Sequence record: NC_054924.1
Direction: 5' to 3' (one strand)
DNA length: 64,000 nt
Origin: Escherichia phage vB_EcoM_Lutter
Position numbers and translations under genes: made by a program
The notes under the pieces: model-generated
Seen by the model: only the letters and a program-made list of their open reading frames with translations
What the model was told of the DNA's origin: nothing
Databases searched by the model: none
Shown here: positions 10,531-63,950 of the stretch, piece by piece
How positions within the stretch are numbered: the stretch's first letter is position 1
How the letters are laid out: every line of letters starts with the position of its first letter

Positions 10531-11001
10531 TTAATCATGTTTCCACACCCCATCGGTATTTGACCAAAGCCGCTGATTATCTGATCCTCGCCACAGCTTT
10601 TTAGTCGGAAGATTTTTCTCATACTTCCCATCAATAATAACATCAACATATTTAAGCATTTCTAGCTGTTTAACATCTTCAAACTTATATCCTGTCCACA
10701 ACCAAATGCTTTTATTGGGATAAAGATTTTTTACTGTTTGAACAATGCAATGAATAACATCTCGGTTATCAGGATAGAGAGGGTCACCTCCAGTTATAGT
10801 CAATCCTTCTATATAATCATTATTCAAACATTCAATTAATTGCTCTAGTGTTTCACCAGTGAATGGAACGCCATTTCTAGCGTTCCATGTTGATTTATTA
10901 TAACACCCTTCACATTTATGCAAACAACCTGTAACGAAAAGAACGACCCTGCATCCAGGGCCATTCACAAAATCGCAAGGATAAAATCTATCATAATTCA
11001 T
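10531..11001 (-). CDS. nrdG: anaerobic ribonucleotide reductase activating protein (radical SAM)
   Basis: 156 aa; CxxxCxxC-type cluster GCLHKCEGCYN; 4-nt overlap with nrdD. Confidence 0.9.
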   Translation of the reverse strand: MNYDRFYPCDFVNGPGCRVVLFVTGCLHKCEGCYNKSTWNARNGVPFTGETLEQLIECLNNDYIEGLTITGGDPLYPDNRDVIHCIVQTVKNLYPNKSIWLWTGYKFEDVKQLEMLKYVDVIIDGKYEKNLPTKKLWRGSDNQRLWSNTDGVWKHD

Positions 11002-12815
11002 TGGTGTTTAACCCTATGCATGATTTCTTTATTTTTGCCGAGATTAAATCCACGTTCGTTCGGATTTCCCAAATAACCACAAGTTCTTCTTATTGTGTTC
11101 ATCTTTTTAGGATCAGTTTCTCCACAAATAGAACAAACAAACCCGTTTTCAGTAGGAGTCATTTCATGGGTACTTCCGCATGTAAAACACTTATCTACTG
11201 GCATATTAACACCAAAATAATCTAAATGCTGTGCAGCATAATCCCACACGGCCTCAAGACCTTTTAGGTTATTTTTCATATCAGGAAGTTCAACATAAGA
11301 AATGTGACCACCTGTCGCAATGAAATGATATGGCGCTTCACGAGAAATCTTTTCAAACGGAGTAATATTTTCTTCTACTGAAACATGGAAACTATTAGTG
11401 TACCAGCCTTTATCAGTAACATCCTTTACACTTCCATATTTCTCAGTATCAAGTTTACAGAAGCGATAGCACAGGTTTTCAGCAGGAGTAGAATACAAGC
11501 TAAAAGCAAAACCAGTTCTTTCAGTCCACTGCTTAAGACGAGCATTCATTTTAGTTAAAATTTCTCGTCCAATATCACGACCGACAAGAATATTCAATTC
11601 GTGAATACCAATGTATCCTAGGGACACTGAACTTCTACCGTTTTTAAATAACTCAATTATGTCGTCATCAGGTTTAAGACGAACCCCGAATGCACCTTCT
11701 TGGTAAAGAATAGGAGCAACAGTAGCTTTAACTCCTTTTAAGGAACTAATTCTACACATCAAAGCTTCAAAACATAAATCCATTCGTTCATTAAATAGCT
11801 CAACAAATTTCTGTTCATTGAATTGTGTTCCAATATAAGAATCTAACGCGATGCGAGGAAGATTCAGTGTTACAACACCAAGATTATTACGTCCATCAAG
11901 AATTTCATTACCAGTCGAATCTTTCCATACGCTCAAGAAACTACGGCAACCCATTGGAGAAACAGGAACAGATGAACCGGTGATAGCTTTATTGTTCTTA
12001 GCTGAAATAATATCAGGATACATTCTTTTGCTTGCACACTCTAGAGCAAGCTGCTTAATATCATAGTTCGGATCGTCTTTGTAAAGATTAACGCCTTCTT
12101 CGACGAACATAACAAGCTTAGGAAAAATAGGAGTTATCCCATCACGACCGAGACCTTTAATGCGGTTTTTAAGAATTGCCTTCTGAATCATTCGTTCAGT
12201 CCAGTCAGTTCCCGTACCAAATGTAATTGTTACAAAAGGAGTCTGTCCGTTTGAACTAAAGAGAGTATTTACTTCATATTCATAAGCTTGGAATGCATCG
12301 TATACGTCTTTTTCTGTTTTAGATTGAGCATAATTCAACGCATCAGCGATTTGCCATTTTTCTGCATCCTCAATATGTTTTGCATAGGTGCGTTTAACAT
12401 AAGGAGAAAGTACTTTATCTACATTCGCAAAAGTCGTTCCGCCATATTGGTGAGAAGCAACCTGTGCAGTAATTTGTGCCATAATTGCAGTAGCAACGCC
12501 AATTGATTTAGGAGTTTCAATCTGTGCATTACCTAGCTTAAATCCATTCTCAAGCATCCCCTTTAAATCTACTAAACAACAATTAGTAAAGGGCAATGAT
12601 ATACTGTAATCTAAATCATGAAAATGAATTAATCCAACATTATGGGCATTTACAATATGACTTGGAAGAATACGACAAGCGATATGTTTAGAAACAATAC
12701 CGGCCATTAAATCTCTTTTTGTTGGAAAGACACGAGAATCTTTGTTGGCGTTTTCGGTATTTAATTCTTTATCTTTATTTGAAATAAAATTTAAAACATC
12801 TTTCTCTAAAGACAT
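10998..12815 (-). CDS. nrdD: anaerobic ribonucleoside-triphosphate reductase; uninterrupted (no intron)
   Basis: 605 aa continuous ORF; C-terminal CxxC zinc site and glycyl-radical region. Confidence 0.93.
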   Translation of the reverse strand: MSLEKDVLNFISNKDKELNTENANKDSRVFPTKRDLMAGIVSKHIACRILPSHIVNAHNVGLIHFHDLDYSISLPFTNCCLVDLKGMLENGFKLGNAQIETPKSIGVATAIMAQITAQVASHQYGGTTFANVDKVLSPYVKRTYAKHIEDAEKWQIADALNYAQSKTEKDVYDAFQAYEYEVNTLFSSNGQTPFVTITFGTGTDWTERMIQKAILKNRIKGLGRDGITPIFPKLVMFVEEGVNLYKDDPNYDIKQLALECASKRMYPDIISAKNNKAITGSSVPVSPMGCRSFLSVWKDSTGNEILDGRNNLGVVTLNLPRIALDSYIGTQFNEQKFVELFNERMDLCFEALMCRISSLKGVKATVAPILYQEGAFGVRLKPDDDIIELFKNGRSSVSLGYIGIHELNILVGRDIGREILTKMNARLKQWTERTGFAFSLYSTPAENLCYRFCKLDTEKYGSVKDVTDKGWYTNSFHVSVEENITPFEKISREAPYHFIATGGHISYVELPDMKNNLKGLEAVWDYAAQHLDYFGVNMPVDKCFTCGSTHEMTPTENGFVCSICGETDPKKMNTIRRTCGYLGNPNERGFNLGKNKEIMHRVKHQ

Positions 12816-13627
12816 AATTCTAATTTATCCTTTTGAAATTCTTCGTCTAAATATGGGTTCCAACCCATTTTAAACCTTTTGATGAAATTATCAATTCTAA
12901 ATTTCGGTAAGTTTAAATCCGCAAAAATAGATGATTTACTTTTAAAATCTGGACCTAAATAATCATATAAAATTTCTGCGTATTTTAACCATAATATACA
13001 AGTACCAGATTTAATTGCGTTCGGATGTTTCCAAGGTTTTACACCATACATCGGATTTCCACTTCCTTTATGCCTGATAGAAGATGAAATTCCAATTTTA
13101 ATTTTAGCTTCCTTTGTATGCGAAAATCCACGATGCGGATTTTCTTTCCAGTATTTTTTAGAAGCTTCTGATATTTTCTTTCTGGCTAAATTAGTATGAT
13201 GCTTTCCATAAAATCCATGATTTTTGCCTTTATTACGATTTCTTTTAATCATGGTTATTGATTGCTTTTCTCTAGTTTCTTTAGAAGGAGAAACACCGTA
13301 CGTTGTAAATTGACCATCAGCATATGCTAAATTAAAATACTCTTTATTCCATACATCTTTTTCTATATTCTTTTGAAATTCAGCTTCAATGCTAGTTATT
13401 TGTTCATCTCCGACTAATTGAAAATATAATATTTCAACTTTCGGCGTTTCTTTCAATAAGGCTTTTTGAAATTCGGAAGATGACGAAGACGAATAATAAA
13501 ATTTACCATTTTTATCAATAATATTCGTTCCATCAAAAGTGCAATTGGTTTTACTTCCAATGTAATAATATGGTGGGGTTTTAGCATTAATTCTATTAAT
13601 AAATGATAGTTTATATACTACGTTCAT
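12806..13627 (-). CDS. free-standing GIY-YIG homing endonuclease
   Basis: 273 aa; VVYKLSF...YYYIGSK then NUMOD-like repeats (NRNKGKNHGFYGKHH, GSGNPMYG); wedged between 49 and nrdD. Confidence 0.6.
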   Translation of the reverse strand: MNVVYKLSFINRINAKTPPYYYIGSKTNCTFDGTNIIDKNGKFYYSSSSSSEFQKALLKETPKVEILYFQLVGDEQITSIEAEFQKNIEKDVWNKEYFNLAYADGQFTTYGVSPSKETREKQSITMIKRNRNKGKNHGFYGKHHTNLARKKISEASKKYWKENPHRGFSHTKEAKIKIGISSSIRHKGSGNPMYGVKPWKHPNAIKSGTCILWLKYAEILYDYLGPDFKSKSSIFADLNLPKFRIDNFIKRFKMGWNPYLDEEFQKDKLELCL

Positions 13628-30553: not shown

Positions 30554-30819
30554 TAGTATTTTTCCTCTGGTTGGAACACAGCACGGCAAGCCCACATACT
30601 GGCTTCTTTGAGTTTCGTTTTAGCAATAGTTAACTGATCGAGGCTTTCGGCGTAATTCTTCGCGAGTTCATCATCTTCACAGCTATCAAATGCTTCCCAG
30701 AATTCATCATATAAAGCATCAAAGATAAGCCCTAAACGAACTTCAGCATCTTTGATAGCATTCACTTTACTGATTTTATCGTCAGTATGTGGTTTATAAC
30801 CTTTAATGTCTTCAATCAT
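30553..30819 (-). CDS. hypothetical small helical protein (positional candidate for vs.4/Acb2-type)
   Basis: 88 aa; position two genes upstream of regB. Confidence 0.35.
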
Positions 30820-31033
30820 ATTTTACTTCCTCACCTGTTCCCAAATCATATTCAACTAAACGAATAGGTTCATGAATGCCATATCCTTGAACAGAAATTT
30901 CTGTCGTAGGATAAATTCCATTAATATCACCCATGTTCCATACTTCGTTAAATTGCTGTTCGCCTGAATTACTAAACCACTCGGCGAAAGCATTTAGCAC
31001 ATCTTCAGAACCTTCAATAATTATCTTTGCCAT
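30812..31033 (-). CDS. hypothetical protein (73 aa)
   Basis: ORF. Confidence 0.45.
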   Translation of the reverse strand: MAKIIIEGSEDVLNAFAEWFSNSGEQQFNEVWNMGDINGIYPTTEISVQGYGIHEPIRLVEYDLGTGEEVKYD

Positions 31034-31395
31034 TACAAACTCTCGGTGAAGGTACGAGCGATAACGTCGCGCTGCTGTTCCGGAGTCAGAGAGTTAAAGC
31101 GAACTGCATAACCGGATACACGGATGGTCAGCTGCGGATATTTTTCCGGATGCTTAACTGCATCTTCCAGAGTTTCACGACGCAGAACGTTAACGTTCAG
31201 GTGTTGACCACCTTCAATTTTAACTGTAGGCTGTTGCTCAATTTCAATTTCACGGGCATGCAAACCATAGAAAATTTCTGGGTCTACAAAAGAGTCCTCT
31301 TTAAAGGTTTTAGAGACAATAATTCGTGCTTGAATACCATCTTCAAAATAAATAGTACCTTTATGTGTGCCTTCAAGAATTTGATATGCTTTCAT
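31033..31395 (-). CDS. autonomous glycyl radical cofactor-like protein (GrcA/YfiD-like C-terminus)
   Basis: 120 aa; C-terminal [27 protein letters not shown] glycyl-radical fingerprint; N-terminus unrelated. Confidence 0.7.
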
Positions 31396-31402
31396 ATAAA
31401 CC

Positions 31403-31732
31403 TCAATTAGAAAATAAATTTATCCAAGATTGTTCTTTAATTAAAAATGGCTCAGAATCATATGCCATTAAACTCTGTGTGATTAGTCCTTTAAAAGGCC
31501 CATCAATAAATTCCATGGTAAAATATGGAATTTTATTCATTAGCCGTGCATTAGGAGCAGTACACAAAACTCTGCATCCTTTGAATACGCCTTTTTGTAA
31601 TTTGTATTGCTTAGGATAAAATTCGCTCAAGACGTTGTTATTTGCCAAAATTTCAAAATGATTCACCAATTTATTTTTAATAGTTTTTGGCGAAAAATAA
31701 AGATATTCGAAAAGCTGAGTGTCTGTCATCAT
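31403..31732 (-). CDS. hypothetical protein (109 aa)
   Basis: ORF. Confidence 0.45.
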
Positions 31733-62207: not shown

Positions 62208-63909
<1,702 letters not shown>

Positions 63910-63950
63910 TAAATATTATAAACTAATTAAAGCCCAGATTAGGAGAAATC

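Follow-up and report, generated by a model that had tools for sequence, protein, structure and literature searches.

The vs.6 locus and its product

The window, by which the whole 64,000-nucleotide stretch analyzed here is meant, was taken from Escherichia phage vB_EcoM_Lutter (NC_054924.1) and is a segment of a Tequatrovirus (T4-like) genome. The gene under study was identified as vs.6 (Table 1). In megablast comparisons it was 98.3% identical at the nucleotide level to positions 63557-63919 of the T4 genome (AF158101), where vs.6 is annotated, and the local gene order (denV, vs.8, vs.7, vs.6, vs.5, vs.4, vs.3, regB, vs.1) was that of T4. The gene matched 755 phage records in all and was 100% identical in phages Pinarejo and UTI-E2. 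The encoded protein shared 118 of its 120 residues with T4 Vs.6, the two differences being Q54P and R73H. The gene is the orthologue of T4 vs.6 (Y06I), and both the protein and its function are already known.

Table 1. Positions of vs.6, its segments and the other features discussed, numbered along the window
Feature	Coordinates	Strand	Evidence
NrdG, 156 aa	10531..11001	-	Pfam Fer4_12, E 2.6e-48; Radical_SAM, E 2e-07
NrdD, 605 aa, single uninterrupted ORF	10998..12815	-	Pfam NRDD, E 6e-171
ORF of 273 aa overlapping the nrdD start	12806-13627	-	NUMOD3 motif, E 5.5e-8, as in homing endonucleases
ORF at the vs.5 position, downstream of vs.6	30812-31033	-	73 aa, 222 nt
vs.6 (Y06I) coding sequence, 120 aa plus stop	31033..31395	-	ORF list, ATG start; identity to T4 vs.6; PHROG 1209; TIGR04365
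Phage-type 3' end of vs.6, gene nt 348-363, with GAGAG at 31040-31044	31033..31048	-	Five differences from grcA
Host-identical tract, gene nt 179-347 (beta-strand, radical loop, most of the C-terminal helix)	31049..31217	-	169/169 versus E. coli grcA
RVSGY glycyl-radical fingerprint, codons 92-96	31108..31122	-	Sequence reading; alignments to 6OWR and PFL 697-759
Phage-type 5' half of vs.6, gene nt 1-178 (codons 1-59 plus one base), AT-rich	31218..31395	-	GC3 0.20; 81/178 matches to grcA
Shine-Dalgarno GAGG, 5 nt 5' of the vs.6 ATG, overlapping the vs.7 stop codon	31401..31404	-	Sequence reading
vs.7 ORF, upstream of vs.6	31403..31732		ORF list

The TAA stop codon of vs.6 overlaps the ATG of the next gene (TAATG), whose ORF starts at 31033. 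A scan for promoters and terminators around vs.6 gave sites that were no more numerous than in shuffled sequence. The gene at the vs.5 position encodes 73 aa in the window compared to 58 aa in T4, and its length of 222 nt is close to that of the 225-nt gene found there in Mosigvirus ATK47. This difference from T4 directly adjoins the host-like tract of vs.6 described below. Elsewhere in the window, the nrdD gene is uninterrupted; the T4 nrdD gene is interrupted by a group I intron.

The initial annotation had noted an RVSGY fingerprint within about 60 C-terminal residues that appeared nearly identical to enterobacterial GrcA/YfiD, and both points were borne out. BLASTP alignment to E. coli GrcA (E 2e-52) showed residues 62-120, the C-terminal 59 residues and exactly the string given in the initial annotation, to be identical, with RVSGY at residues 92-96. 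The radical glycine was assigned to G95 (codon 31111-31113, minus strand), the counterpart of GrcA G102 and PflB G734. The Pfam Gly_radical domain (PF01228) was matched by residues 60-101 (E 2.5e-18). The closest solved structure was that of E. coli GrcA (6OWR; E 9e-42), and the next match was residues 697-759 of pyruvate formate-lyase (PFL), which aligned to Vs.6 residues 58-120 (E 5e-26) and were identical, by our own count, at 49 of 63 positions (78%). The top NCBIfam match was TIGR04365 (spare_glycyl), the model that, with IPR011140, defines the GrcA/YfiD autonomous glycyl radical cofactor family. The match covered model positions 25-126 only, and its score of 154.9 bits lay under the curated equivalog cut-off of 170 bits, compared to 233.9 bits for E. 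coli GrcA. The lower score was attributed to the divergent N terminus of Vs.6, a divergence that could alter the choice of partner. PHROG 1209 was matched over its full length (residues 1-120 to profile positions 1-121 of 121; E 5.7e-63), and the N-terminal 60 residues alone still gave an E value of 4.8e-16. In size, a stand-alone ORF of 120 aa with its own Shine-Dalgarno sequence and stop codon agrees with the family (about 120 to 127 aa), and the RVSGY-bearing domain is collinear with PFL residues 697-759, approximately. The Gly_radical, 6OWR and TIGR04365 matches are in agreement with the initial view of the protein as a GrcA-type glycyl-radical spare part, and from these comparisons Vs.6 would best be classed within GrcA as a phage subfamily (PHROG 1209).

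The N-terminal 60 residues had been considered unrelated to GrcA. This was not upheld, as the alignments of Vs.6 to GrcA began at residue 22 with both BLASTP and phmmer, and hhalign comparison of phage and bacterial profiles joined the N-terminal halves with a probability of 96.1% (E 3e-9), the alignment being collinear across 60 columns and 28% identical. The profiles were built from 10 phage halves (T4-like genera, T5-like phages, two jumbo phages and one Aeromonas phage) and 16 bacterial GrcA halves. When the 13 residues adjoining the conserved half were removed and the first 47 residues were compared, the same register was recovered with an E value of 5e-4, although the probability was then only 30%. 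The ten phage N-terminal halves have a motif in common, consisting of a 14-letter element followed at a distance by a 10-letter element. The phage and bacterial proteins are also of near-equal length (120 versus 127 aa) and of the same layout. Judged from these alignments, the N-terminal half corresponds collinearly to the GrcA N terminus, from which it has diverged, and is common to T4-like, T5-like and jumbo phages; Vs.6 is a full-length diverged GrcA homologue. T5-like, jumbo and Aeromonas phages, in which the 3' half is old and AT-rich, also showed the two-part layout, which was therefore deduced to predate the host-like tract.

Nucleotide tracts shared with host grcA

At the DNA level the two halves of vs.6 differed sharply. 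Matches to grcA increased from 81 of 178 positions in the 5' half to 180 of 185 in the 3' half (Fisher p = 1e-31), and GC3 rose from 0.20 to 0.47. No blastn match to the 5' half (nt 1-178) was found in E. coli. The nucleotide identity to host grcA that had been proposed as a check on the 3' half was found: nt 179-347 were identical to grcA of E. coli SK1144 at all 169 bases, and grcA was present at 97.3% identity to nt 179-363 in all 5426 complete E. coli genomes. The differences beyond nt 347 were at nt 348, 351, 354, 357 and 358, comprising four synonymous changes and one first-position Leu change. The GAGG of phage Mineola that is equivalent to the GAGAG in this last segment of the window gene is annotated as the ribosome-binding site (RBS) of the downstream gene.

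The age and direction of the transfer were deduced from synonymous divergence. In the 3' half, dS to E. coli was 0.118 for the window and 0.045 for T4, compared to 0.98 between E. coli and Salmonella over the same codons. For the window phage versus Mosigvirus, the 5' half gave a dS of 0.43-0.49 and the 3' half one of 0.12-0.20; the lower value for the 3' half implies a tract younger than the genus split at the vs.6 locus. The E. coli and Salmonella grcA genes were equally diverged in their two halves (0.844 and 0.843), which indicates transfer from host to phage, and the phage 3' tract is host-like in composition.

A tract at least 95% identical to nt 200-384 of E. coli grcA was present in 637 phage records, none of which covered the 5' half. 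This E. coli-type tract occurs in Tequatrovirus and Mosigvirus (about 640 records), and the next-best bacterial species was no more than 91% identical to the 3' half of the window gene. The left end of the tract was constant and lay at the GGQ codons, where phage-host similarity starts. The right end varied, falling at nt 347 in the window, at nt 356 in T4 and at the stop codon in Escherichia phage OES_C-2, and tract end-points differed among close relatives. The OES_C-2 gene (PQ642263.1, positions 79-435 of the examined segment) has a 6-nt deletion in its 5' half (EIETQP versus EIEIEQQP), owing to which only its 3' tract was compared; this host-like tract showed a single difference from E. 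coli grcA.

Homologues of Vs.6 were found in 1590 phage records. In the T5-like, jumbo and Aeromonas phages, both halves were equally phage-like in composition, and the 3' half had only 72-79% nucleotide identity to any of 80 bacterial grcA genes. The synonymous sites of the radical domain therefore do drift in phages, and GC3 was as low as 0.08-0.10 in other phage lineages under the same protein constraint. For the homologues from Slopekvirus, Pseudotevenvirus, Krischvirus, T5-like phages, Aeromonas phages and jumbo phages, no recent donor was found, the best identities being 75-84%.

A second host-specific tract was observed with K. pneumoniae grcA, for which the query was a grcA from gut metagenome data that encodes exactly GRCA_KLEP7. 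This query was matched at 95% or more in 105 phage records, over nt 202-369 only; the records of this type are Klebsiella phages, and those fetched were Jiaodavirus. In phage Mineola, nt 181-344 were identical to K. pneumoniae grcA at 164 of 164 positions, with 27 differences from E. coli grcA across nt 179-363, while the tract of the window showed 24 differences from the Klebsiella type. In Jiaodavirus, L76 and E81 of the Vs.6 proteins are residues of the Klebsiella type, and GC3 along the genes jumps from 0.20-0.25 to 0.54-0.62.

Three Klebsiella phages showed features of their own. For the gene of KP179, within Jiaodavirus, identity to its relatives was 97-99% over the 5' half but only 92-95% over the 3' half, and its best identity was 88-90% among 80 GTDB grcA loci and 65 metagenome loci; the sequence of this 3' half is suggestive of an additional donor or of an earlier event. 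Phage vB_Kpn_AM_K4 (PP355766.1, a 288-kb Straboviridae record; positions 1324-1686 of the examined segment) has a vs.6 of the Jiaodavirus type, Klebsiella tract included, but its neighborhood is a different one, beside tRNA genes, which may reflect either a mixed assembly or real transfer between phages. In phage KPV15 (KY000080.1, positions 1501-1862 of the examined segment), the homologue is annotated as two coding sequences of 150 and 156 nt, probably because of a frameshift, a sequencing error or a pseudogene.

With grcA of Salmonella, Enterobacter and Citrobacter amalonaticus, no near-identical tract was found in phages, the identities being at most 84%, 86% and 92%, respectively, and the E. 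coli-type tract is enough to account for matches of this closeness. Documented cases of conversion are therefore limited to two host species. On the evidence of the tracts themselves, the 3' half has been replaced separately from E. coli (Tequatrovirus and Mosigvirus) and from K. pneumoniae (Jiaodavirus), that is, at least twice and each time from the phage's own host. A prior account of the vs.6 DNA mosaic, or of its host-specific, repeated replacement, was not found in the searchable literature, although an earlier mention may exist elsewhere.

Alternative readings and proposed mechanism

The initial annotation had interpreted the protein as a chimera in which a host-derived radical domain was joined to a phage-specific N terminus. 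A true fusion of a captured host domain with an unrelated phage module would explain the sharp DNA junction at nt 178/179 with its jump in composition, the lack of a nucleotide match to the 5' half in E. coli, and the score under the GrcA equivalog cut-off. Nevertheless, it is considered very unlikely since the N-terminal half is collinear with that of GrcA, the phage and bacterial proteins are near-equal in length and layout, and phage homologues whose 3' halves are old and AT-rich, from T5-like, jumbo and Aeromonas phages, already combine this N terminus with the radical domain. The architecture was therefore deduced to be ancestral and only the 3' DNA to be recent. Thus, the host origin of the 3' half was retained from the initial interpretation (169/169 bases; dS 0.12 versus about 0.98), while the unrelated N terminus was not; the alignment of the N-terminal half to GrcA, which the annotation itself had named as the mark of a plain orthologue rather than a chimera, was observed at the protein level, and the mosaic is real at the DNA level. 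Since the N-terminal half is homologous to that of GrcA, the gene is better described as a phage grcA homologue with its 3' half overwritten by host DNA than as a fusion of unrelated parts. The opposite reading, a plain vertical orthologue whose host-like 3' half results from extreme purifying selection on the radical domain, is consistent with the near-invariance of the C-terminal 59 residues across Enterobacterales and phages and with a dN of about 0 in the 3' half. However, the identity extends to the synonymous sites throughout the 169 nt, other phage lineages under the same protein constraint have diverged to the nucleotide identities and GC3 values given above, and the tracts are host specific, with the E. 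coli type in coliphages and the K. pneumoniae type in Klebsiella phages. This reading is contradicted by the synonymous-site data and was rejected, its probability being regarded as negligible.

A separate question is which enzyme would be served by Vs.6. The initial annotation had suggested the rescue of a glycyl-radical enzyme damaged by oxygen, of either phage or host. For host PFL this agrees with published work on T4 Y06I, whereas for the phage anaerobic ribonucleotide reductase NrdD, with activation by NrdG, we regard the role as highly improbable because Vs.6 has no similarity to the NrdD of the window. The NrdD assignment does have some points in its favor. NrdD and NrdG are both encoded in the window, on the minus strand and with Pfam matches, as had been annotated (10531-12815); a role for vs.6 in phage nucleotide metabolism was speculated upon in PMC1524935 since the Gly_radical domain is common to NrdD; and in the Salmonella jumbo phage PHA46 (PP191103.1, 337 kb) a GrcA-like gene of 120 aa lies directly between nrdD and nrdG. 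Against these points, BLASTP detected no similarity between Vs.6 and the NrdD of the window (best E 2.4, with the radical motifs unaligned), whereas identity to GrcA is complete over the C-terminal 59 residues and the match to PflB 697-759 is 78%. The NrdD radical site, RRTCGYLG, was found in another C-terminal context, behind a CxxC...CxxC cysteine cluster. Furthermore, about 18 kb separate vs.6 from nrdD in this genome, and the activation and rescue reported in PMC8683613 are activation by PFL activase and rescue of PFL. Apart from the PHA46 gene (positions 295-657 of the examined segment), no genomic link of a phage GrcA homologue to the class III reductase was observed.

Most of the functional assignment comes from earlier biochemistry. 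YfiD and T4 Y06I, both of about 14 kDa, were reported to receive a radical from PFL activase and to restore the activity of O2-cleaved PFL (Wagner et al. 2001, BBRC 285:456, pmid 11444864, as cited in PMC8683613), and they are described as the only two validated spare parts (PMC8683613). According to the same source, residues 61-127 of YfiD reproduce the PFL 693-759 fold, and the disordered residues 1-60 are required for the binding of cleaved PFL and for efficient radical installation. In a 2006 comparison of T4-like genomes, vs.6 was conserved in six of six genomes and matched Gly_radical (PMC1524935).

Taken as a whole, vs.6 is very probably the orthologue of T4 vs.6/Y06I and a GrcA-type PFL spare part with its 3' half overwritten from host grcA. 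The mechanism for the window protein is proposed by analogy to T4 Y06I, with which it shares all but two residues. Oxygen would cleave host PFL at its radical glycine, G734, and Vs.6 (14 kDa) would bind the enzyme so cleaved; the beta-strand, radical loop and helix at the C terminus of Vs.6 would substitute for PFL residues 697-759, approximately. The host activase PflA would then install a new radical on G95, and the conversion of pyruvate to acetyl-CoA and formate would be restored. The phage presumably supplies its own spare part because host gene expression is shut off after infection. In vivo, the benefit to the phage would be the upkeep of PFL and with it the supply of ATP and acetyl-CoA by fermentative metabolism in micro-oxic, gut-like infections.

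With regard to the DNA, we infer that the 3' half of an old phage grcA homologue was overwritten through homologous recombination with the host chromosomal gene. The left junction would correspond to the start of phage-host homology at the GGQ codons, and the right junction would fall in the last few codons, where homology ends and where the RBS and start codon of the next gene are located. The radical-domain half is likely to be a standing recombination window between the strictly lytic, host-DNA-degrading T-even phages and the host chromosome, with conversion recurring independently. It is much more doubtful that recurrent conversion is adaptive and keeps the spare part of the phage in step with the resident PFL and PFL activase; alternatively, the recurrence may be neutral, a by-product of homology that reinforces itself.

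Significance and comparison with known systems

Neither the gene nor its function is new, T4 Y06I having been a validated PFL spare part since 2001, and the evolutionary addition made here, the host-specific and repeated replacement of the 3' half of vs.6, is a modest one. The annotations can be corrected. Across the phage homologues the labels found were hypothetical protein, pyruvate formate-lyase, 2-ketobutyrate formate-lyase, formate acetyltransferase and GrcA, many records still giving the family as hypothetical, of unknown function or "pyruvate formate-lyase," and PHROG 1209 is listed as of unknown function despite the 2001 biochemistry. The locus is also a natural record, and an unusually clean one, of homologous recombination from host to phage among virulent T-even phages: each replaced tract is a perfect copy, 164-169 nt long, for which the donor species can be named. 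The vs.6 tract could be used to trace recent host history, and the frequency of recombination between lytic phage and host DNA could be measured with it.

Among known systems, the closest is T4 Vs.6 (UniProt Y06I_BPT4), which is the same gene between vs.7 and vs.5 at the nucleotide and protein identities given above. The window protein differs from it by Q54P and R73H, the host-like tract of the window ends about 9 nt before that of T4, and the downstream vs.5 product is 58 aa in T4 rather than 73 aa. The Jiaodavirus Vs.6 (Mineola gp117) is encoded by an orthologous gene at the same locus, with the same mosaic anatomy and left junction; it differs in that its tract is from K. pneumoniae grcA (164/164 nt), that it carries L76 and E81, and that its 5' half is just 72-74% identical to that of the window.

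E. coli GrcA/YfiD (6OWR) has in common with Vs.6 the identical C-terminal 59 residues, the 169 consecutive bases, the two-part layout and the context of the radical glycine. In contrast to GrcA, the N-terminal half of Vs.6 is only about 28-30% identical, is 7 residues shorter and is without the NSFWLLD motif that is invariant in bacterial GrcA, and the TIGR04365 score of Vs.6 falls under the equivalog cut-off. The genomic settings also differ, as vs.6 sits in an array of phage early-region genes while host grcA lies between ung and eamB. The C-terminal radical domain of PflB (697-759; 1H16, 2PFL) is the segment replaced by the spare part, and the 49 of 63 residues that are identical include the whole of a 22-letter core; Vs.6 is, however, a stand-alone 14-kDa protein without the catalytic barrel. 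The T4-type NrdD class III ribonucleotide reductase resembles Vs.6 in its Pfam Gly_radical domain class and its oxygen sensitivity and is encoded in the same window, but it differs in having no pairwise similarity to Vs.6, a TCGY radical motif and a dedicated activase, NrdG.
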